Positions 3,487 to 28,335 of a stretch of 32,000 nucleotides of DNA are shown in pieces (position 1 is the first letter of the stretch; the number at the start of each line of letters is the position of its first letter). Under the pieces are notes generated by a model. That model saw only the letters and a list, made by a program, of their open reading frames with translations, was not told the origin of the DNA and searched no databases. Source of the DNA: an uncultured Candidatus Bathyarchaeia archaeon (GTDB lineage Archaea; Thermoproteota; Bathyarchaeia; 40CM-2-53-6). The translations under genes and the position numbers were made by a program. The stretch spans positions 1-32,000 of the forward strand of contig CAZHKA010000023.1 in NCBI GenBank assembly GCA_964533505.1, written 5' to 3'.

Positions 3487-4581
3487 CTAGGCTACTACCT
3501 TCTTGAGGTATTGAGCGTCTCCCCTGGGTCTTCGCTCTTTCCAGATTTGACAGAAGTCTGTGTTGTTTTCAAGGTACCGGTTCATGGCTACTTCCGAAAT
3601 TAATTTGGCGGACCGGGCGATATCAAGGAGGTTCCAAACGATTCCTCGTAGGACCAGGGCGAGTTTTCTATCTTGTACTGATGAAACTATCAGTTCCGTA
3701 ATTTCCTTCTCAGTTTCTTCAATTTTCTTTGAGCGGCCAATAGCAACGTTAGCGAGTTCTATATCCATCATGCTAAATGAGTCCATGGCGCTGTCGGTCA
3801 CCGAAAGCGTCTCACTGCCAAACTTTGCGACTGCGTCAATCACGGAGGAATATGTCTCGTACTTTCCGTCGGACAATGAAATTACTTGGCTTGCAATGGC
3901 TTCACTGCAATCGGCTATTTCTTCCAAGTACTTCGATACTGCTCGGTAACCGACCGCATGTGTTGCTGACTCTAGGCCTATGTGACGTGACAACGGTATT
4001 GTCGAAATCGCGCGGAAGATTTGGCGTAATATTAGCCAATAAAGTCGGTCGGCCTCGCTTTCGAGTTCTAGGACCTCCAACGCAAGTGAGCACTTGTGCT
4101 CTGTCAAGGCTTGCATGGTCCGTTCTAACATGGAAGTCGCAACTTTGTGAAGGCGTGAGATGAGTCCTGCTAAGGAGAATTTTCCAGGGTCAAGAAAGCA
4201 TTGTATGACTGTTTCAGTCGGCGTTTGTTCGACGATACCTAGCCCGCTCAGTCTCCTGGTGGAGTCGCGAATCGCGTTAAGCTGTTCTGAAGTTAGGTCC
4301 TTGGATGATGTAATGATGGTCGTATCGCGGCCGAGTATGTAACTCCCCGTAATCATCCGTGATAGAAGCTCGCTGTCTTTGCAAGCATCCACGTTGATCC
4401 TGCACACAGTCATTTCGTCGGCTTCAAAATCTGTGCCTGGGGTAACCACGAGTTCTCCGAATTCAGAGAGTCTAAGGGTGACAATGCCTCCTTGCTTCAA
4501 CCCAACTTGCCTCACCCAGTCCCTGGGTAAGGAAACGGTCAGGGTTGAGTGTCCAACGCGTTGAACCTTTCTTATTTCCAA
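3487..4581 (-). CDS. AbrB/SpoVT-domain plus PhoU-like-domain regulator (paralog 1)
   Basis: The N-terminus MEIRKVQRVGHSTLTVSLPRDWVRQVGLKQGGIVTL is a SpoVT/AbrB swapped-hairpin motif. The remainder is helical and PhoU-like (EADRLYWLILRQ...). Confidence 0.8.
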   Translation of the reverse strand: MEIRKVQRVGHSTLTVSLPRDWVRQVGLKQGGIVTLRLSEFGELVVTPGTDFEADEMTVCRINVDACKDSELLSRMITGSYILGRDTTIITSSKDLTSEQLNAIRDSTRRLSGLGIVEQTPTETVIQCFLDPGKFSLAGLISRLHKVATSMLERTMQALTEHKCSLALEVLELESEADRLYWLILRQIFRAISTIPLSRHIGLESATHAVGYRAVSKYLEEIADCSEAIASQVISLSDGKYETYSSVIDAVAKFGSETLSVTDSAMDSFSMMDIELANVAIGRSKKIEETEKEITELIVSSVQDRKLALVLRGIVWNLLDIARSAKLISEVAMNRYLENNTDFCQIWKERRPRGDAQYLKKVVA

Positions 4582-12560: not shown

Positions 12561-13634
12561 GTGCCGGTTTTGGAAGCTCGAAAGGTTCAACGTGTCGGTT
12601 ATTCCACGCTTACAGTATCGCTCCCAAGAGACTGGGTTGAGGATGTAAAGCTCAAGGCCGGTGACATAGTCTCCATAAAACGAGAGGATGACGGGTCGCT
12701 CAAGCTTGTCCCCGGAACGGAACACAAGCGGGACGAGGTGAGAAATTGCATCGTAAATGCCGATCTATGCAATTCCCCACATCTCTTGACGCGAGTAATC
12801 ACGGCTAATTACATTCTAGGTCACGACACTATCCAGATCGTCGCCAAGGAAGAACTGAAGCGAGAGCATCTGGAGGAAATACGCTCAACGACACAACGCC
12901 TTACCGGGCTCAGCATAGTCGAACAAACAATGAAACAAGTGACACTGCAAAGCTTCGTTGACCCTACGCGATTTCCAATATACGGCCTGATGCGGCGCCT
13001 ACACATCATCCTTACTTCAATGCTCGACCTATCGCTCAAGGCTTTAGTCGAGAGAAGGCCGGAGCTTGCCGCCGAAGTCGCCCATATGGAAGAAGAGTCC
13101 GATAGGATATACTGGCTGATCGTCAGACAACTTCTCCTTGCAATCCGCGACAGGAGCGTGGGAACTAAAATCGGAATAGAATCACCGGTGCACATCGCGG
13201 GCAACAGGGTAGTTGCCAAGACCCTTGAGGAGATGGCGGATTCCGCGGAAAGTGTCGCAAACGAAGTCATCGCCTTGAAGGATCGACAGATCAATAGTGA
13301 GTCAATTCTTACTGACGTCGCGAAGTTCGGTGCTCAGACAGTCAGAGTCTCAGACCAGACAATGAAAGCTCTGCTCACGGGCGACATCTCCTTAGCGAAT
13401 TCAGCCGTCGAAATGGTCGAAGAAGCTGAGGAAGATGAGAGAAAGTTAACGCAGAAAGTTCTCGCACACGTAAAGGACCCTGCCTCGGCCGCAGGCTTGA
13501 GAATCATCGTCTGGAACTTAGGGCAGGTCACTAAGTTCTGCCGAATGATTGGTGAGGTAACCATAAACCGTGTGCTGGAGAAACCTTCGCCTATCTGTGA
13601 GTACCTCCCAGTTCCTGAAGCTCGAGCAGCTTAA
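12561..13634 (+). CDS. AbrB/SpoVT-domain plus PhoU-like-domain regulator (paralog 2)
   Basis: (M)EARKVQRVGYSTLTVSLPRDWVEDVKLKAGDIVSI aligns with the 3487..4581 product along its whole length. The likely start is TTG 12570, by analogy with paralog 1. Confidence 0.8.
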   Translation: MPVLEARKVQRVGYSTLTVSLPRDWVEDVKLKAGDIVSIKREDDGSLKLVPGTEHKRDEVRNCIVNADLCNSPHLLTRVITANYILGHDTIQIVAKEELKREHLEEIRSTTQRLTGLSIVEQTMKQVTLQSFVDPTRFPIYGLMRRLHIILTSMLDLSLKALVERRPELAAEVAHMEEESDRIYWLIVRQLLLAIRDRSVGTKIGIESPVHIAGNRVVAKTLEEMADSAESVANEVIALKDRQINSESILTDVAKFGAQTVRVSDQTMKALLTGDISLANSAVEMVEEAEEDERKLTQKVLAHVKDPASAAGLRIIVWNLGQVTKFCRMIGEVTINRVLEKPSPICEYLPVPEARAA

Positions 13635-14073: not shown

Positions 14074-14105
14074 TCAACTCACTCATGTCGCTTGTAGAGG
14101 TATTA

Positions 14106-14132
14106 GCGCCGCCGGCAGGATTCGCATCTACG
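14106..14132 (-). repeat. Fragment resembling the 3' end of tRNA-Asn (possible distal att site)
   Basis: gcgccgccggcagg (14106..14119) is identical to 28202..28215, which covers the first C of the CCA, the discriminator, the 3' acceptor strand and the 3' T-stem strand. It is in the same orientation, and partial similarity continues into the T-loop. No complete tRNA can be folded here. Confidence 0.35.
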
Positions 14133-14344: not shown

Positions 14345-15105
14345 GGTTCAATCCTTGTTTTGATGGATTAGTCTTCCCGACTATCTAGCACGAGCTTACG
14401 GTATGGGCGCAGGCATGTTTCAATCCTTGTTTTGATGGATTAGTCTTCCCGACTTGGGTACTCTGGGTCGCCTCAGATCAAGTTTTCTAGTTTCAATCCT
14501 TGTTTTGATGGATTAGTCTTCCCGACTATGCTTACCGCGTTTGGTTCGACGGTTTACATTATGTTTCAATCCTTGTTTTGATGGATTAGTCTTCCCGACC
14601 TCATGCAGGGCATGGACACTTTTGAGGATGTCAGTTTCAATCCTTGTTTTGATGGATTAGTCTTCCCGACAATGTCTCCGTTGCGGGAAAACCGTTGAGG
14701 AACCTGTTTCAATCCTTGTTTTGATGGATTAGTCTTCCCGACATAGACCACGTAATCGTTGAGTGAATCGTAGTAGCGTTTCAATCCTTGTTTTGATGGA
14801 TTAGTCTTCCCGACCGAATTGGATGCAAGGGGTACCTCCGCCTGCACGCGTTTCAATCCTTGTTTTGATGGATTAGTCTTCCCGACGGATTTCTATAATT
14901 TGTTGGGCAGACAGTAGAGGGTTTCAATCCTTGTTTTGATGGATTAGTCTTCCCGACTATAACGTGATAGTTTGAGTTTGGCCTACACCGAAAGCGTTTC
15001 AATCCTTGTTTTGATGGATTAGTCTTCCCGACTTACTACGATAATGATGTCGAACATGTGTATATCGCGTTTCAATCCTTGTTTTGATGGATTAGTCTTC
15101 CCGAC
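14345..15105 (-). CRISPR. CRISPR array with 11 repeats of 37 bp and 10 spacers of 34-38 bp
   Basis: The plus-strand repeat is gtttcaatccttgttttgatggattagtcttcccgac. Repeats start at 14345, 14417, 14490, 14563, 14634, 14706, 14778, 14850, 14921, 14996 and 15069. Only the repeat at 14345 is degenerate (ggttc...). On the minus strand the repeat is GTCGGGAAGACTAATCCATCAAAACAAGGATTGAAAC. Its ATTGAAAC end matches the usual Cas6 8-nt handle, so transcription runs on the minus strand from the 15106 side. Confidence 0.97.
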
Positions 15106-15263
15106 TGCCACTTTTTTGGGTCGTTTTCGATTGTTTTGGTTTGATTTGAGCCTCATGTTGGTTTTTCATTTTCGGATCGTGGAATTATTCTAGCGGTTAT
15201 AAAGATCGTCTCACTCTTTGAGGCAAGTATAGCGTAGGATGCATGGAGTACTTCGGAGGACAG
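15106..15263 (-). promoter_or_regulatory. Putative CRISPR leader
   Basis: Non-coding AT/T-rich stretch between the cas4 stop and the newest (perfect) repeat. It contains a TTTATAA-like element on the minus strand, about 90-100 nt from the first repeat. The degenerate repeat is at the opposite end of the array. Confidence 0.5.
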
Positions 15264-15866
15264 CTACTGTTTCGCGAAGTTTGGCGTAAGGGATCCGACT
15301 TCGCATACCTTTCTGTAGCAGCATGTGAGACAACGGTTGCTGTAGCGGGCTGGAGGGCATTTCCCTGACACTAAAGTTTCCTTTGTTCGTTGGAGAATAG
15401 AAAGCGCTAGGTTGCGTATCTCTTCGGTTATGTTGACTTGGATCTCACGTCTCCTTGTTCTGTCAAACACGACTATTGCCTTTCTAACTTTCTTTCCAAG
15501 GGCCTCTTCGACAAGAAGCGAGAGTAGCCCTAGTTGGGTCTTGGTTGTGGTTCCTACGATGGCGTGGTCTGAGTATTTGCGTTCTATGATTATGACCTCT
15601 GTAGGTGTCTCTATGGCTTCATCTACTTTTCCTGAAAACAGTTGGCTCTCTGAGAATAGTTGGAGTTCGGTGACTTTTTTTCCTCTGGTTTTTCTAGGCA
15701 TGTAGCTGAGGTTCGTTATTGAGTGGCGTTCGTGGTACGCGCGGCCTGCTTTGACGCTTCCCTGTTTTCCTTCATACTGTTTCAAGCCAAGAACAAGTTC
15801 GTAGTATGTGAATTTGGGGCAGAAGGCGTTTTCGAGAGCATTAGTTACGGTCAGGTTGGTGTTCAA
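15264..15866 (-). CDS. cas4: CRISPR-associated exonuclease Cas4
   Basis: N-terminal Cys (AFCPKFTYYE), a RecB-type GKVDEAI...VIIIERK motif, and C-terminal CLTCCYRKVC Fe-S cysteines. The likely start is TTG 15866, which overlaps the cas2 stop (TTGA). The track ORF extends to 15953. Confidence 0.8.
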   Translation of the reverse strand: MNTNLTVTNALENAFCPKFTYYELVLGLKQYEGKQGSVKAGRAYHERHSITNLSYMPRKTRGKKVTELQLFSESQLFSGKVDEAIETPTEVIIIERKYSDHAIVGTTTKTQLGLLSLLVEEALGKKVRKAIVVFDRTRRREIQVNITEEIRNLALSILQRTKETLVSGKCPPARYSNRCLTCCYRKVCEVGSLTPNFAKQ

Positions 15867-16159
15867 ACTACTTCTATTGCCTTCTCGTTTGATACGTATT
15901 CCATGTCGAAACCTTGCCCAATTATGGTTATTTTTCCAAAGCAGTGTTTGCATGCAAGTATGAGGTAGATTGATTCGGGCTTGCGCGCGGCCTGTTTAAG
16001 GTTCTCGACTAGATTCTTCTTTTGCTGTGAGGATAGGGAGCCGCAGAAGACGCTCTTCTGGATTCTCACGAATCCCGCATTCTTGAGCGTCTGCATGATT
16101 TGTAGCCTCGTCTTATCGCTTGAGATATCGTAGACTGCATAGTACATGTTCTCCTTCAT
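15863..16159 (-). CDS. cas2: CRISPR-associated endoribonuclease Cas2
   Basis: MYYAVYDISSDKTRLQIMQTLKNAGFVRIQKSVFCGSL is the classical Cas2 beta1-alpha1-beta2 signature. 98 aa. Confidence 0.9.
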   Translation of the reverse strand: MKENMYYAVYDISSDKTRLQIMQTLKNAGFVRIQKSVFCGSLSSQQKKNLVENLKQAARKPESIYLILACKHCFGKITIIGQGFDMEYVSNEKAIEVV

Positions 16160-16163
16160 GAGG

Positions 16164-16982
16164 TCATGCCTCAGTTATGAACCGTTGAAGTAGCTTTCGG
16201 CAGTATTCCCAAGTATCCCTCTGAATCGGACGCGATAGCTCACCGATATATCGTGTCATCGCGTTTCGTCGGCCTTCTTTTGACAGGTAGACTTCGGTGT
16301 CTGAGCCTCTTTCTTCAAACCAAGAGTCTCTTATGATTCTCTTCGTGAACATCGTGATAACTAGTCGGTCAACTCTTGGTCGGAAGATCTCTATTATGTC
16401 AAAGACGAGTGTTGGTTTGCCGTAGGCGTCGGCGTGGTAGATTCCGGCGTTCGGATCTAGCCCAGAGAGTATCACGATCTTCTCGATGTCTGAATAGGCG
16501 TAGCCGTAGAGGTAGTTCAGAATCGAGTTGAACTCGTCTCTTGCGGGCTTTCTGCTTCGCTGTTCAAACACGTACTTGGTTGGGAGTATAGATGATATGG
16601 CTTTGAAGTATTCTGAGGCTGCGAATCCTTCCAATCCGAGGAGAGACTGTTTGAATTGCGGTGTGAATTTAAACGAACTAAGCTGCATGAGTGTTGATTG
16701 TATGTTATGAATCGCTTGGTTCAGTGTTTCTGTTCCGGCCTTCCTGTTCTTTCTGAGATGGCTGAGTAATCTCTTCTGTTCCGTGAGTTTAGTGGTCACG
16801 ATTGTCCTTGATATTTCAAAAGCCAGTTGCGAATCCTGGTTGAGGTACTGCCCTCGTCGAATCTCAGTTGCTCTTCCGGGTGCACTGGCCCAGAACCTTC
16901 CGAAGGGTCTGCCAGACCAATCGGCAAAAACAAGTTGTATTCCTTTCTCGAGACAGAGAGCAGCCGCTTGTGTGCTCACCAA
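16164..16982 (-). CDS. cas1: CRISPR-associated endonuclease Cas1; the 5' end (16983..17088) is disrupted
   Basis: GLDPNAGIYHADAYGKPTLVFDIIEIFRP and surrounding helices are Cas1 catalytic-domain motifs. The intact ORF lacks about 35-45 N-terminal residues, and remnants of them are visible upstream in shifted frames from ATG 17088. Confidence 0.85.
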   Translation of the reverse strand: MVSTQAAALCLEKGIQLVFADWSGRPFGRFWASAPGRATEIRRGQYLNQDSQLAFEISRTIVTTKLTEQKRLLSHLRKNRKAGTETLNQAIHNIQSTLMQLSSFKFTPQFKQSLLGLEGFAASEYFKAISSILPTKYVFEQRSRKPARDEFNSILNYLYGYAYSDIEKIVILSGLDPNAGIYHADAYGKPTLVFDIIEIFRPRVDRLVITMFTKRIIRDSWFEERGSDTEVYLSKEGRRNAMTRYIGELSRPIQRDTWEYCRKLLQRFITEA

Positions 16983-19488: not shown

Positions 19489-19933
19489 AAAGATCAAGCG
19501 GGCGTTTCAATTCTAATGTAATAAGAGTTCCTGATGGTTCTCGGTTAGCTCTCCACTTTCGTTGCAGACCACCGAATCGGAATATTAGACTTGGCTCTAA
19601 CGCAGAATACTCTGATACCAATGACACCAAACTGTGTGAAATGTGGTAGCCCAATGCGGTTGTTGTAGAGCTTCACCAAGCTGAAGGGTGAGAAGCGGGT
19701 TACAATTCGTTATACCCCACCCCAACCCAAAAGGGGGTACAGAGATTTCCCGGCTCAGATTTCGTGGAAGTCAACGTTCATCAGCGGCTCTGAGAAGAGC
19801 CAATCTTTCTTCTAAGAGCAAATACATGGTTTTCGGGGATTTGGATTTTCACGAAAGCCTCTCTTTCTACTCAGGCTCAACAATAACGTAAGTTGTAAAT
19901 CTCTAGTGAACCGATTAGGCTAGGGGTAAGGGT

Positions 19934-20404
19934 ACGGGTAAGTCTAAGGGAATTTTTCTTCTTTCTGCATGCTTCCTACTGCTAACAATAATTGAGGGAG
20001 TTCGCGCTCAACCGGGCATCACCGTTACCACGGACAAGAGCACTTATCATCCTGGCGACTCGGTCATCATCACCATTACGATTTCGAGCGTACCCTCCGA
20101 CACGTGCTTCCCCGTCGGAATAACTCCTATCACATCTCAGAATTTGCCTCTCTATTCTATTGGGGAGGTCTGTGGTTTGGGCGGTAAGTTGGCATGGACG
20201 ATTCCCAACAACGCAACGCTTGGCCTTTATGATGTCGAGGTCAGCACAGCCCCGGCGTCAGGGTTTAACGCATATGAATCATACGCTGTGTTCACAGTGA
20301 CAGGCCCGACACCCGTACCTGAAACACCATCAGTTCTAGGGTTACTACTTCCGGCATTGCTAGTAGGAATCTACGTCTCAAGAAGAAAGAGAACAGTTAG
20401 GTGA
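19934..20404 (+). pseudogene. Secreted Ig-like protein with a PEP-CTERM-like C-terminal sorting signal (paralog 1); the start codon is apparently mutated to ACG
   Basis: The frame is open from 19919. It encodes a signal peptide KGIFLLSACFLLLTIIEGVRAQPGITVTTDKSTYHPGDSV that is collinear with the 24683 paralog. ACG (19934) stands where the paralog has ATG, and the only canonical start (TTG 20144) would delete the signal peptide. The C-terminus is PVPETPSVLGLLLPALLVGIYVSRRKRTVR. Confidence 0.55.
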
Positions 20405-20425: not shown

Positions 20426-20515
20426 TTAGTTAGTAACTACGACCATCTGCTGTCCACAACAGTTTTCCGCCACAACCGCCTCTCTTCCGCATGCGGCACA
20501 TCTGTACACGGGCAT
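20426..20515 (-). CDS. Candidate 29-aa Cys-rich mini-protein
   Basis: GGAGGTGAGG is followed by ATG, giving MPVYRCAACGREAVVAENCCGQQMVVVTN. The 96-aa track ORF upstream of this ATG runs through the conserved non-coding module and is unlikely to be coding. Confidence 0.3.
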   Translation of the reverse strand: MPVYRCAACGREAVVAENCCGQQMVVVTN

Positions 20516-20713
20516 CAGAACCTCACCTCCAGACAAAAAGCTCCGCATCACTAAGCGCCCATTGATGCGTATATTTGATTTTCCCATCTGCGAACCGTAT
20601 TGGATATGCATCCCGTGTATCCGAAGGTCTGAATTTATGGCGTTTGGGTTGATTTTGTATTGGAGTTGGGTTTCGAGAGAATTGGGCTTCGCCCGTGTAT
20701 GCGTGGAGTATAA

Positions 20714-20758
20714 CAAAATAAGAAAATAAGGCGGAACGGCCCGCCGCTCGTGCGAGCC
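20714..20758 (-). terminator. Putative terminator after sORF A: two GC hairpins plus a T-tract
   Basis: On the minus strand: GCTCG-CA-CGAGC, then GGCGG-GCCGTT-CCGCC, then TTATTTTCTTATTTTG. Conserved in copy B (27467..27511), where the only change falls in a loop. Confidence 0.4.
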
Positions 20759-20845
20759 CTAAGCTACGATTTCCTCTTGTCGAATGTTCTTGTCGTGCTC
20801 AGTATCTAGTCTCATTCTAACTTTCTTTTTTGGTCTCGGCGCCAT
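20759..20845 (-). CDS. Small basic peptide, family member A (28 aa)
   Basis: AGGAGGTGTTTACAG precedes the ATG. The product is MAPRPKKKVRMRLDTEHDKNIRQEEIVA. Confidence 0.45.
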   Translation of the reverse strand: MAPRPKKKVRMRLDTEHDKNIRQEEIVA

Positions 20846-21092
20846 CTGTAAACACCTCCTATCATTAACCGGGAAGGCCTAAGCATGTCGGCATATAAGG
20901 GGAGTTGGAGATACAGTCGAAATAGGTAATTATACTCCATTTCCACCCAGTAGAATAGGGGCGAAGGGTATCCTTGTTGACGTGGCCGGGCAAGATGCCT
21001 TCTATAGATGAAGCTCACGCAACTGCGAAATCTTTGTTAGGTATGAGCTTTCTTGCGGTCAAGCAACCTACACTCCTTACCTCAGTCCTAGC

Positions 21093-22938: not shown

Positions 22939-23979
22939 ATGACGTTTAGGAAACCCGCTAGACTAAAACGAAAAGACATAGTAGCGGTCCTCTCGCCGTC
23001 GAAGGGGCTTCCTAGCAAATTCCCTCAGGTGTACGAGCTTGGAGTAAGGAATCTTGAGAAACTCGGACTAGTTGTGAAGGAATACCCAACAGCCAGGGCT
23101 GATAATCAATTTCCAATTACGAGAATCCCAGGAAGCGGGCGGAGGATGTGAACAATGCGTTCGCTGATCGGGAAGTCAAGGCTATCGTATGTACGATTGG
23201 AGGAGATGAATCTGCAAGGATTCTTCCTTTACTAAACAATGAGGTCATTACAGCTAATCCAAAGATTCTGATGGGATACTCTGACATTACCACACTGCTG
23301 ACTTATTGCACACAACTCGGCTTGGTCACCTTTCACGGTCCCACGATTATGGCCGGTTTCTCGCAGCTTAACTATCTACCAAGGGCTTTCGCTGACCACG
23401 TTTCGGATCTTCTGTTCGACCCAAAGCCAACGTATCTCTACGAGTCCTATGACGAATATTCTGACGGTTACCCTGACTGGACGGACGTAACCAACTTGGG
23501 TAAAGTCAAAACCACCAAGAAGCAATACAGGCTGGAACTGGTTGCAGGGAAACTCCTGCGCACAAGGGGAGCTGTTCGGCGGATGCATCGAGGTATTGGA
23601 GTTCGTTAAAGGGACACCCTATTGGCCAAGACCAGACTTCTGGGAAGGAAAGATTCTCTTTCTGGAAACATCAGAAGAGAAACCGAGCATAACGAACGTC
23701 CAGCGATGGTTGCGCAATTACGGGTTGCACGGAATTTTTGGCAAGATAGGCGGCTTGCTCTTCGGAAGAGCTAGGGACTACTCGGAACCAGAAAAGATGC
23801 AGTTGGATAATGTCATCGTTTCTGTCGTAGCAAAGGAATTCAATCGACCTGACCTACCGATTGTCTCGAACATGGACTTTGGTCACACAGACCCTCAGTT
23901 CATTCTACCCTTAGGAGTGCTAGCTCAAGTTGACTGTCAGGATAAGAAGTTCAGATTGCTGGAATCTGCTGTTCTCTGA
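22939..23979 (+). pseudogene. S66 peptidase (LD-carboxypeptidase / MccF-like) split by two frameshifts
   Basis: Three consecutive track ORFs (22939..23151, 23148..23609, 23542..23979) together form one S66 protein: KDIVAVLSPS..., RAEDVNNAFADREVKAIVCTIGGDES..., GYSDITTLL, GELFGGCIEVL..., ILFLETSEEKP..., NMDFGHTDPQFILPLG. The frame changes near 23105 and near 23550. Confidence 0.75.
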
Positions 23980-24482: not shown

Positions 24483-24682
24483 CTGTAGAGCTGAAGCTTT
24501 ACTAGAGTTCCGAATAGTCTTACTTCGGTTTGACTGTTGGAAAGGGGTGAGAAATAATGGGTTTAGATGAGGAGGAAAATGATGATGAACAAAGTAATGA
24601 TGAAGATGGAAGACGAAGAAGATAATGAGGAAATCTTCATTTGCCTTAACTTAAATTCTCTAGTGAACTGAGGAATACGGGT

Positions 24683-25159
24683 GTGAGTATGAGTAGGTTT
24701 AAGGGGATTTTTCTTCTTCTTGCATGCGTCCTACTGCTAACAATAATGGGATTAGCCCATGCTCAAGGGTCATCTATCACTGTAACGACGGATAAGACCA
24801 CTTATAGTCCCGGAGATACTGTCCGCGTAACCGTTACTGTGACTGGCCCAATCACCGGCCCAGGCTTAACCGTTGAAATTGTGCCTGTGCCAATGTCTTC
24901 AGGTCTATTCCCGGTTGCAGCGGGAACTCTCTCCGTCAGCGGAGGCACCTTAGCATTGACACTTCCTAATAGCACAACGCCCGGCCACTATGACGTTGGG
25001 GTAGTAGCAGAAGAGGGAGGAACATTCACCCTGGACCCGGCCGTTGGAGTCACGGTGACAAAACTGACACCGGTACCTGAAACGCCCTCAGCTCTTGGGC
25101 TACTGCTTCCGGCAATGTTAGCAGTGATAATCGTTCTAAGAAAAAATAGGTTAAGGTAG
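24683..25159 (+). CDS. Secreted Ig-like protein with a PEP-CTERM-like C-terminal sorting signal (paralog 2)
   Basis: Signal peptide MSRFKGIFLLLACVLLLTIMGLAHAQG, then ITVTTDKTTYSPGDTVRVTVTV. The C-terminus is a tripartite signal: PVPETPSALGLLLPAMLAVIIVLRKNRLR. Confidence 0.7.
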   Translation: MSMSRFKGIFLLLACVLLLTIMGLAHAQGSSITVTTDKTTYSPGDTVRVTVTVTGPITGPGLTVEIVPVPMSSGLFPVAAGTLSVSGGTLALTLPNSTTPGHYDVGVVAEEGGTFTLDPAVGVTVTKLTPVPETPSALGLLLPAMLAVIIVLRKNRLR

Positions 25160-27386: not shown

Positions 27387-27705
27387 TTTATGGCGCCTAG
27401 TCTGATTTTGTATTGGAGTTGGGTTTCGGAAGAATTGGGCTTCGCCCGTGTATGCGTGAAGTATAACAAAATAAGAAAATAAGGCGGAACGGCCCGCCGC
27501 TCGTACGAGCCTTAAGCAACGAATTCCTCTTGTCGAATGTTCTTGTCGTGTTCAGTACCTAACTTCATCTTAACTTTGCGTTTCTTAGCCAACCCCAAAC
27601 ACCTCCACTAATTGCCTAGAATGATCTGAGCGTCGTTTAGGCATATAAGGCAGCTTGGAGAAGAAGTCATAAAGGGAGAATATTCCGCATTTCCACCTAG
27701 TAGAA
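27387..27705 (-). repeat. Duplicated ~320-bp module, copy B
   Basis: See copy A (20634..20955). Shared elements are the TATA-like gcatataagg, catttccacc(c/t)agtagaa, the 3' half of the sORF, and the hairpins with T-tract. Confidence 0.85.
27512..27592 (-). CDS. Small basic peptide, family member B (26 aa)
   Basis: GGAGGTGTTTGGGG precedes the TTG. The product is (M)AKKRKVKMKLGTEHDKNIRQEEFVA. Confidence 0.45.
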   Translation of the reverse strand: MAKKRKVKMKLGTEHDKNIRQEEFVA

Positions 27706-27846
27706 CATACGGTTAAATAATCATGTCTCTTAATGGTGATTTTGGCGAGGCGAATTTGAATGGTGGACAAAAGGAAAGTCAAGTTGAATCTGCGTGTCTT
27801 GTTCCCTGACAAGGCAGGGACAGGTTAGCAAATGAGGTGAGCTTGA

Positions 27847-27945
27847 ATGGTGAAGAAGCGTATGGGCAAGAGGAGGAAGGTCAAGATGACACTTCAAGGT
27901 GGTCCTCCCCAAGCTGTCCCTGCCACGGACGAGTTAGTTGCTTGA
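27847..27945 (+). CDS. Small basic peptide, family member C (32 aa)
   Basis: GAGGTGAGCTTGA precedes the ATG. The product is MVKKRMGKRRKVKMTLQGGPPQAVPATDELVA, which shares the basic N-terminus and the acidic-hydrophobic xELVA C-terminus. Confidence 0.35.
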   Translation: MVKKRMGKRRKVKMTLQGGPPQAVPATDELVA

Positions 27946-27994
27946 GTTCATAGCTGACAAGGTAAGGCTAGATTACGTAGGGAGATGAAGTTGC

Positions 27995-28084
27995 ATGGCG
28001 AAGAAGCGGAAGAGTAAGATGAAGTTGGACGCACGTTGGAACCCATCTGGACGTAAGCTGCAAAGAAGTTGGAAGTTCCAGTGA
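27995..28084 (+). CDS. Small basic peptide, family member D (29 aa)
   Basis: GGGAGATGAAGTTGC precedes the ATG. The product is MAKKRKSKMKLDARWNPSGRKLQRSWKFQ. The N-terminus is near-identical to member B, but the C-terminus differs. Confidence 0.35.
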   Translation: MAKKRKSKMKLDARWNPSGRKLQRSWKFQ

Positions 28085-28199
28085 GGAGCCTAAGCCGCTA
28101 GTCACCCTCGGCTTGAGGGCATTGTAATTTCCACACCTTTATCGAGTGTATTGTGTATTGTTATGGCATAAGGAATAGGAAAAGCCGTAGGTTGGATAG

Positions 28200-28335
28200 T
28201 GGCGCCGCCGGCAGGTATCGAACCTGCGACCAACGGGTGTCTGCCCGTTTAACAGCTTCAGCCCCTTCAAGGTTTGTTGAGGGTCCGCTGCTCCACCACT
28301 GAGCTGTCGTCTGCGCTGTTCGCGTATACGGCGGC
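28200..28335 (-). tRNA. tRNA-Asn(GUU) with three putative introns and an encoded CCA
   Basis: The reverse complement starts GCCGCCG and ends CGGCGGC-G-CCA. D arm: GCTC-AGTGGTG-GAGC. T arm: GCAGG-TTCGATA-CCTGC. Variable loop: TGGTC. The anticodon loop CTGTTAA is flanked, after removing the insertions, by GCGGG/CCCGT. The insertions are about 22 nt (about 28306..28327), 28 nt (28257..28284) and 11 nt (28239..28249). Confidence 0.75.

Follow-up and report, generated by a model that had tools for sequence, protein, structure and literature searches.

We analysed a stretch of 32,000 nucleotides (nt) of DNA, referred to here as the window, from an uncultured Candidatus Bathyarchaeia archaeon (assembly GCA_964533505.1, contig CAZHKA010000023.1, positions 1 to 32,000), in which an initial annotation had described four unannotated lysine/arginine-rich small open reading frames (sORFs), A to D. 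The genes of the window are archaeal-type housekeeping genes, including those for 2-oxoacid:ferredoxin oxidoreductase, MoeA, ScpB and MazE-PhoU fusions, and its closest public sequences are Bathyarchaeia metagenome-assembled genomes (MAGs) and peat or bog metagenome contigs. All four sORFs lie where the annotation had placed them and have the translations it gave, with the correction that B starts with TTG. A (20759..20845, minus strand; 28 amino acids plus stop, ATG start, MAPRPKKKVRMRLDTEHDKNIRQEEIVA) is a divergent paralogue of B (27512..27592, minus strand; 26 amino acids plus stop, TTG start, (M)AKKRKVKMKLGTEHDKNIRQEEFVA), which is the canonical member of the family. C (27847..27945, plus strand; 32 amino acids, MVKKRMGKRRKVKMTLQGGPPQAVPATDELVA) is a diverged paralogue, and D (27995..28084, plus strand) is a tandem duplicate that combines the N-terminus of the family with an unrelated basic tail. 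Each sORF had been credited with a Shine-Dalgarno-like motif; A and B do possess a perfect GGAGGTG 7 nt before the start (20853..20859 and 27600..27606, respectively, both on the minus strand), and C possesses GAGGTG 7 nt upstream, but D is preceded only by the degenerate GGGAGATG. There are only six full GGAGGTG sites in the 32-kb window, and three of them stand 7-8 nt before the start of a micro-ORF, namely A, B and an unrelated Cys-rich ORF of 29 codons.

The micro-gene family and its gene unit

The shared core of the peptides, (T)EHDKNIRQEE, was back-translated into a degenerate DNA pattern of ~46 bits and used as a search pattern. Of ~185,000 species representatives, only two, both Bathyarchaeia MAGs, contained matches (four loci); a further 46 matching loci came from peat or bog metagenomes. 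Four of these 50 matches are cut by contig ends, two are degenerate, and 44 are intact orthologues or paralogues of B. Start and Shine-Dalgarno sequence are lost at locus L037, and a 3'-half remnant is left at L050. The intact copies (44 of the 46 uncut matches) are all ORFs of exactly 26 codons, end exactly three residues past the QEE motif, as is characteristic of the family, and carry without exception (44/44) a GGAGGTG-type Shine-Dalgarno sequence 7-8 nt before the start. The recurrence of the same ORF and Shine-Dalgarno sequence in 44 of 46 uncut matches to a ~46-bit pattern is far beyond chance. The commonest product, one of 15 distinct peptides, is MAKKRKVKMKLGTEHDKNIRQEEMVA, from which the peptide of B differs by a single residue (F24 for M24). 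Among the 36 unique sequences, the start codon is ATG in 19 and TTG in 16, and the stop codon is TAA in 25 and TAG in 11; in one diverged lineage (L052), GTG is found at the same position. The TTG of B lies at 27592, a position with which ATG, TTG or GTG aligns in its orthologues, and an alternative TTG is present at 27598.

The ratio of non-synonymous to synonymous polymorphism (pN/pS), measured only on the 15 codons that the search pattern left free, was 0.29 in frame versus 1.64 and 1.09 in the two shifted frames. In addition, the entropy of third codon positions was 2.5 times that of first and second positions, and the flanking DNA was found to diverge across loci while the ORF was retained. 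Protein searches, in which no DNA pattern was used, revealed further members of 26-28 residues with changes in the core, such as MAKKRKVKMKLGLEKDKNVTQEEMVA, ...KKKKVKMKLGGEFDKNVRQEEIVS, ...LGLEKDKNVTQEEMVA, ...LGGEFDKNVRQEEIVS and MGLKQKIKMKLGLEHDKNVKQEEQVA. From these diverged members, a nearly invariant motif could be derived, E-x-D-K-N-[IV]-x-Q-E-E-x-V-[A/S/Q]-COOH. A word search of 5.8 billion proteins with a tandem-duplicated query and a HMMER search of 1.84 billion representatives gave 7-13 unnamed matches each. Most of these database matches are mis-extended ORFs whose N-termini run through the translated promoter region, and cluster look-ups of the entries returned 'hypothetical protein' only.

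In the window, A and B lie within a ~320-nt direct repeat that covers the whole gene unit (20634-20955 for the copy with A and 27387..27705 for the copy with B). The two copies are ~96% identical in the 3' half of the sORF and the ~125 nt downstream, where the similarity stops abruptly, versus 65-75% identical in the 5' half and the promoter. A carries an in-frame N-terminal insertion yet keeps the same C-terminal register as B, and a variant akin to A, MAPKKKVKMKL..., is present at locus L021. In an alignment of their coding strands, A and B differ by a 6-nt indel that keeps the frame, by R/K swaps (AGA/AAG), by synonymous changes and by a TAG-to-TAA switch of the stop codon, and because of these differences, the similarity between the two copies is a coding pattern and not merely a nucleotide repeat. 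The ~96% stretch, which begins in the middle of the ORF, could be the result of gene conversion between paralogues, or the conserved 3' half could serve as a recombination site. The initial annotation had named three observations that would speak against its proposal (frames not preserved in relatives, no translation signal, and similarity confined to nucleotide repeats), and none of them was made for A and B. Since frame, length, start, stop and Shine-Dalgarno sequence are kept in relatives and the changes are mostly synonymous, A and B are real genes, two paralogous copies of a protein-coding micro-gene of a clade of peat and soil Bathyarchaeia. That the family as a whole is a real, selected family of micro-protein genes is, in our judgement, very probable.

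Each coding region is embedded in a unit of conserved layout. In 36 distinct upstream regions, the order of elements is GTGGAAATGnGGAAtATT, ~14 nt, CTTtTTCTCCAAGCC, ~4 nt and TTAAATA, followed by ~40 variable nt, TGGAGGTG, 7 nt and the start; the upstream box can be written as GTGGAAATGnGGAAtATT...CTCCAAGCC. In 33 of the 44 loci, the first position of the TTAAATA-like element is 55-60 nt upstream of the start (typically ~57 nt), a spacing that would fit an archaeal TATA box and an mRNA with a 5' untranslated region of ~30 nt. Downstream, a run of at least four T occurs within 80 nt of the stop in 38 of 42 loci, mostly starting 30-39 nt after it, and is often preceded by a GC hairpin. In the window, the alignment places the family-specific upstream region of B at 27642..27696 (minus strand), with a TATA-like TTATATG at 27642-27648, 56 nt before the start, a CTCCAAG box at 27654-27660 and the upstream box GTGGAAATGCGGAATATTCTCC at 27675-27696, while a terminator-like hairpin, GGCGGGCCGTTCCGCC followed by TTATTTTCTTATTTT, lies downstream at 27466..27498 (minus strand). 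The upstream boxes and the TATA-like element are present for A as well, in a promoter-like region (20890..20955, minus strand) that is 73% identical to that of B, and the terminator-like hairpin and T-tract downstream of A (20713..20745, minus strand) are identical to those of B.

We searched 370 kb of related DNA for these upstream elements. All 35 matches to the upstream box precede sORFs of the family, as do 34 of the 35 matches to the CTCCA/TATA box, the remaining one standing before a divergent family sORF that the flagging filter had overlooked. A wider regulon was accordingly rejected as a clue to function, the boxes being found before family sORFs only. The unit thus appears as a monocistronic gene complete in itself, ~300 nt long, whose promoter is duplicated along with it, and it would be transcribed alone as a short monocistronic mRNA and translated efficiently. 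A miniature mobile repeat of the MITE (miniature inverted-repeat transposable element) type was considered and rejected; no inverted repeats flank the units, and the copies are syntenic across genomes.

Because boxes and hairpin are conserved at the nucleotide level, we also considered that the functional product might be an RNA, either small and regulatory or structured, or that the units might be plain DNA repeats, the ORF being incidental in both cases. In favour of this, the upstream CUCCA could pair with the UGGAG of the Shine-Dalgarno sequence in some copies, and synonymous variation within the EHDKNIRQEE core is modest. However, coding is indicated by the frame-specific pN/pS, the excess of third-position variation and the fixed ORF length, and also by valid starts and stops that replace one another, a constant Shine-Dalgarno spacing and indels that keep the frame. 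When 33 5' regions were folded by minimum free energy, the structures had nothing in common and were inconsistent with one another, so that a 5' structure sequestering the Shine-Dalgarno sequence was dropped, and no Rfam family matches the unit. An RNA or repeat origin of the pattern is therefore, in our view, very improbable, and a protein-coding micro-gene is the reading that we retain, although an mRNA with a dual function is conceivable.

Clustering of the flanking ORFs revealed at least two stable contexts of the micro-gene. In the first (13 loci), the neighbour is a convergent gene for a protein of 192-194 amino acids, which resembles a NUDIX hydrolase by eye; in the second (10 loci), the convergent gene is carbonic-anhydrase-like and a phosphoglycerate-dehydrogenase-like gene lies upstream, both also named by eye. 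No neighbour is common to both contexts, and hence the micro-gene has no operon partner. Several copies may occur in one genome: there are three in MAG CAWHWX01 and two, 8-9 kb apart, in both L008 and L031.

The A/B repeat contains a second ORF of 30 codons, which is hydrophobic and convergent with the micro-gene (27390-27482 and 20637-20729, both on the plus strand). It reads M..LILYWSWVS.ELGFARVCV.YNKIRK, lacks a Shine-Dalgarno sequence and is present in the window only, and both internal differences between its two copies are non-synonymous. This ORF is probably not coding.

The diverged cluster of the window

The sORFs B, C and D lie close together and are accompanied by a fragment, E (27760..27828, plus strand; MVDKRKVKLNL...), a truncated fifth copy in which the N-terminal part left over from a third tandem copy is joined to the spacer that follows C (CTGACAAGGCAGG). 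A terminator-like hairpin at 28105..28119 (plus strand) possibly ends a C-D transcript. Two loci, L042 and L023, are syntenic with this cluster at 85-92% identity. At these loci, C encodes MVRKRKVKMTLQAGPPQAVPATDELVA (27 amino acids, L042) and MVKMTLQGGPPQAVPATDELVA (22 amino acids, L023), the indels in its basic N-terminus are in frame, and 2-4 codons differ synonymously and 1-2 non-synonymously from the window, versus 0-1 synonymous differences in the other frames. C is preceded by a family-type CTCCA..TTAAATA region in L042 and L023, which is replaced by fragment E in the window. C is probably a functional diverged paralogue, because it is kept in both relatives with in-frame indels, mostly synonymous change and a family upstream region there. 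Its N-terminus is still basic and its end still follows D/E-E-Φ-V-A (...ELVA), with a different linker between them; since both ends are kept while the middle is replaced, this suggests that both ends of the peptide matter, as two functional anchors.

The situation of D is different. Its frame is kept in L042 with 2 synonymous versus 8 non-synonymous codon differences, it is cut to 20 amino acids in L023, and no constraint was detected in the comparison with these two loci; upstream boxes and a TATA-like element of the family are absent before it. D is probably decaying or evolving fast. E is missing from L042 and L023 and appears to be a decaying remnant of a local tandem duplication, and the family would thus evolve through local duplication and decay. 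The initial annotation had pointed to a motif shared by C and D. We found CTGACAAGG exactly at 27806 (before C) and 27954 (before D), 148 nt apart, but at one mismatch it is no commoner than chance (9 occurrences in the window versus 8.1 expected). By eye, E, C and D would form a small local tandem array in which the two exact copies of CTGACAAGG belong to one duplicated unit. The proposal that the sORFs are translated, unannotated lysine/arginine-rich micro-proteins thus seems justified for A and B and plausible for C, but not for D, and the comparison of synonymous sites that had been recommended came out in favour of the A/B family and against D, with only the few differences given above for C.

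The four sORFs had been described as clustered beside a tRNA gene. A probable tRNA gene with two introns and a long variable arm is located at 28197-28335 (minus strand). ARAGORN did not call it under default settings, and the Rfam tRNA model gave 27.7 bits versus a gathering threshold of 29 (E = 0.0025). When ~21-22 nt between positions 9 and 10 were dropped, ARAGORN called a tRNA-Ser(UGA) with a second intron of 22 nt, and the sequence is probably a real two-intron tRNA-Ser(UGA). B, C and D are near it, but A is 7 kb away. Among the related loci, only L052 and L053 have a tRNA detectable by ARAGORN beside an sORF, that is, in one lineage only, and tRNA linkage was rejected as a general feature; the proximity is incidental and has no functional meaning.

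In that more diverged lineage (L052 9852-10180, L053 9853-10180), a micro-gene with a GTG start, MGLKQKIKMKLGLEHDKNVKQEEQVA, lies 70 nt downstream of a tRNA-Arg(CCG). In L052, the tRNA-Arg is bordered by a tyrosine integrase and several small hypothetical genes in a row, and the neighbours in L053 are genes for arginyl-tRNA synthetase, CdvA, ESCRT-III and Vps4.

The initial annotation had also suggested mobile-element cargo. Under this explanation, the units would be carried by mobile elements, or the micro-gene would serve as an attachment or recombination site, and the sORFs of the window would lie in an integrated or hypervariable island. The internal order of the B-C-D cluster is kept in L042 and L023 while the flanks differ in all three genomes, L023 being circularly permuted relative to the window. 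In L042 (649-1053), a C-terminal fragment of an SSV-type integrase (PF16795) lies 345 nt downstream of a B-type sORF, and the sORF of L052 lies next to a tRNA-Arg and an integrase. At L050 (3400-3440), only the C-terminal half is left, beside the defence-island genes AbiGi and DUF4145, and at L004 (about 2850-2960), the last seven codons (QEEFVA*) are repeated directly after the stop. In the window itself, GC content dips over ~14-28 kb, the identity of A and B jumps to ~96% and ends abruptly as described, and a tRNA 3'-end-like fragment at 14101-14132, just before the CRISPR (clustered regularly interspaced short palindromic repeats) leader, shares an exact 14-nt stretch, CCTGCCGGCGGCGC, with 28197-28228. 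No tRNA is found at the site of the fragment. The two sites may represent an old pair of attachment sites bracketing a 14-kb island, but an exact 14-nt match is expected about twice by chance in 32 kb. Moreover, no integrase was found among the window ORFs scanned; A and B are both complete with diverged promoters, for which duplication and gene conversion is a better explanation than an attL/attR pair; most copies are in stable housekeeping synteny across many genomes; and no match was found in collections of viral contigs, phages or plasmids. Since housekeeping synteny predominates and the virus and plasmid collections gave no match, mobile-element cargo is kept as a minority explanation that we consider unlikely. 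It is not supported for the family as a whole, but for the B-C-D cluster of the window we leave it as a possibility.

The peptide and its possible role

We now return to the micro-gene family as a set of selected protein-coding genes. The peptide has a mass of 3.1 kDa, an isoelectric point of 10 and a grand average of hydropathy (GRAVY) of -1.2, and it contains no membrane or transmembrane stretch. In a single-sequence AlphaFold2 model, the N-terminus is extended and the C-terminal part is helical over EHDKNIRQEEFV (residues 14-25), with a predicted local distance difference test score (pLDDT) of 68, a confidence too low for a fold search. The initial annotation had assigned no known family to the sORFs, and our searches agree with it: A to D had no match up to E = 10 in Pfam, NCBIfam, PHROGs or PADLOC, and sequence and profile searches of the PDB, ribosome chains included, also gave no match up to E = 10. 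A literature search for the peptide strings found no paper.

The proposed architecture is bipartite. Residues 2-11 (K-K-R-K-V-K-M-K-L), whose side chains are basic and hydrophobic in turn, are predicted to form a basic amphipathic strand, and this strand probably binds a polyanion, which could be rRNA or the ribosome, another RNA, or DNA. Residues 14-26 are predicted to form a short acidic helix that carries the nearly invariant motif, and the conserved C-terminus would contact a protein partner, or fold back on the basic half and neutralise it. The several gene copies would supply dosage, and together with the strong Shine-Dalgarno sequence, they point to a high demand for the product. Binding of nucleic acid or the ribosome, one of the roles named in the initial annotation, is our best guess.

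Very small ribosomal and ribosome-associated proteins such as eL41, bS22, Thx and Sra are basic throughout and usually encoded by single-copy genes. Like them (25-45 amino acids), the peptide is short, has a K/R-rich segment that is likely to bind RNA and belongs to a class often missed in annotation. Unlike them, it has an invariant acidic C-terminal half within its 26 residues and several gene copies. Membership in a small ribosomal protein family of the eL41, bS22 or Thx type was rejected, as neither single sequences nor profiles matched Pfam, NCBIfam or the PDB at E up to 10.

The alternation of basic and hydrophobic residues, a capping residue and a helix are also found in ribbon-helix-helix (RHH) proteins such as CopG, Arc and MetJ. 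The segments K-V-K-M-K-L and G-T-E and the helix resemble the strand and first helix of the RHH domain, and the extended N-terminus and helix of the model agree with this. The peptide could thus be a minimal 'ribbon-helix' DNA binder, the alternating strand pairing up to give a ribbon of two strands that lies in the major groove of DNA, or a modulator of RHH regulators, which would be a more specific version of nucleic acid binding. However, helix B and the hydrophobic core are missing, 26 residues being too short for the second helix of the RHH core; the helix that is present is largely polar; and no Pfam or PDB profile matched even at E = 10, in comparisons that did not extend to profile-to-profile alignment with RHH families. 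This explanation seems quite unlikely to us. A likeness of another kind was noted for the 15-residue MKLGTEHDKNIRQEE, which resembles the repeat RQLASDHDKGVRQEV of the NACHT-LRV protein P0010, a weak match of the protein searches, as in LRV (PF01816) or HEAT-like repeats. The likeness would suit a turn leading into a short helix and is a motif-level resemblance rather than demonstrable homology. Homology to LRV repeats was rejected, with a hhalign probability of 12% and no match to LRV or HEAT models even at E = 10.

Small size, a strong Shine-Dalgarno sequence, a conserved N-terminus and C-termini that vary among B, C and D would also be expected of cis-acting leader peptides, of precursors of ribosomally synthesised and post-translationally modified peptides (RiPPs) or of type I toxins. 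Attenuation is ruled against because the ORF is followed by a terminator (in 38 of 42 loci, a hairpin or oligo-T comes after the stop) and because, in both main contexts, the adjoining gene is convergent, so that there is nothing to attenuate. For a RiPP precursor, a modifying enzyme, transporter or other maturation or export gene should recur beside the sORFs, but none does across contexts, and the neighbours are housekeeping-like by eye. The toxin of a small toxin-antitoxin pair, as the initial annotation had proposed, is not supported: the peptide is hydrophilic and lacks a membrane segment, there is no PADLOC match, no partner gene is conserved, and the neighbours differ between paralogous loci and across contexts. 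All three possibilities together are extremely improbable.

Archaeal small proteins have been catalogued by ribosome profiling (Ribo-seq) and peptidomics in Haloferax volcanii (PMC10117724) and Methanosarcina mazei (PMC11456600), and a global catalogue of small ORFs is available (GMSC; PMC11364881). Like the catalogued archaeal proteins, the sORFs described here are stand-alone and unannotated, have no more than 70 codons and their own expression signals, and are missed by gene callers. Unlike those proteins, the family belongs to uncultured Bathyarchaeia, is multi-copy and has a conserved, family-specific upstream region. No sequence relationship of the peptide to any described small-protein family was found. 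This is a new micro-protein family for which no relatives could be detected, and it falls into the broad class of small prokaryotic proteins that is already known.

Taken together, a multi-copy family of micro-genes that have their own expression signals and encode a bipartite, polyanion-binding peptide is the best overall explanation, which we hold with reasonable confidence. The specific mode of action, with the basic strand on the polyanion and the acidic helix or C-terminus on a protein or on the basic half, is offered only tentatively. A further-reaching idea is that Bathyarchaeia have, in this peptide, a lineage-specific part or regulator of one of their core nucleic-acid machines, such as the ribosome, chromatin or RNA polymerase, which would be made in abundance from several dispersed copies with a dedicated promoter module each. 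Independently of this, the extremely conserved 3' half might also act as a hot-spot of recombination or attachment, in the manner of tRNA genes. We regard these ideas as rather doubtful.

Several points weigh against the best overall explanation. First, the search pattern itself dictated the amino acid at ten of the 26 codons, so that their conservation among the DNA-pattern matches is circular, and the matches from protein searches are the only independent test of these codons. Second, the distribution is narrow, with only two of ~185,000 species representatives matching the pattern. Third, the binding mechanism is deduced from composition, no homologue of known function, conserved neighbour or partner was found, and the AlphaFold2 model is of low confidence and was built without an alignment. 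Fourth, the expression of the family is deduced from sequence. Fifth, purifying selection is not seen for D, and for C the argument depends on a very small number of substitutions. In addition, a core role in the ribosome is spoken against by the fact that genes for ribosomal proteins normally occur as single copies.

In anoxic sediments and peat, Bathyarchaeia rank among the most abundant archaea, yet they have barely been cultivated. Strong purifying selection, several copies, and a promoter module, Shine-Dalgarno sequence and terminator of its own make it likely that the micro-gene is expressed at a high level and matters to the physiology of the cell. Its recognition benefits annotation and provides a clean marker for this clade of Bathyarchaeia. 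The peptide is small enough to be synthesised, so that its binding partner is directly testable, and the family is a good test case for the calling of micro-genes from comparative evidence alone.

Other features of the window

A CRISPR array of 11 repeats of 37 nt (Rfam CRISPR-DR7) and the cas genes next to it are located at 14345-16982. Only an adaptation module stands alongside the array, consisting of cas4 (15264-15953), cas2 (15863-16159) and cas1 (16164-16982), all on the minus strand, and no effector genes were recognised within the window. An LD-carboxypeptidase gene (Peptidase_S66, 23148-23979, plus strand) is split into two overlapping frames, 23148-23609 and 23542-23979; it is either a frameshifted pseudogene or an assembly error.

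Two paralogues of a putative surface protein, ~75% identical at the DNA level, lie at 19921-20404 and 24676-25159 (plus strand). Both end in a PEP-CTERM-like tail, PVPETPS..LLLPALLVGIY..RRK, which suggests a sorting signal of the archaeosortase type, and a homologue of these proteins comes after the B-C-D cluster at locus L023. Two inverted paralogues of the MazE(AbrB-like)-PhoU fusion, at 3487-4581 (minus strand) and 12561-13634 (plus strand), flank a region with 2-oxoacid:ferredoxin oxidoreductase and aminotransferase genes and contain a 29-nt inverted repeat (4223-4251 and 12900-12928).

The Cys-rich micro-ORF mentioned above, which is unannotated, lies at 20429-20515 (minus strand). No match to it was found among the other related loci examined. 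It encodes MPVYRCAACGREAVVAENCCGQQMVVVTN, a peptide of 29 amino acids with four Cys that resembles a zinc ribbon, and a perfect GGAGGTG stands 8 nt upstream of its start.

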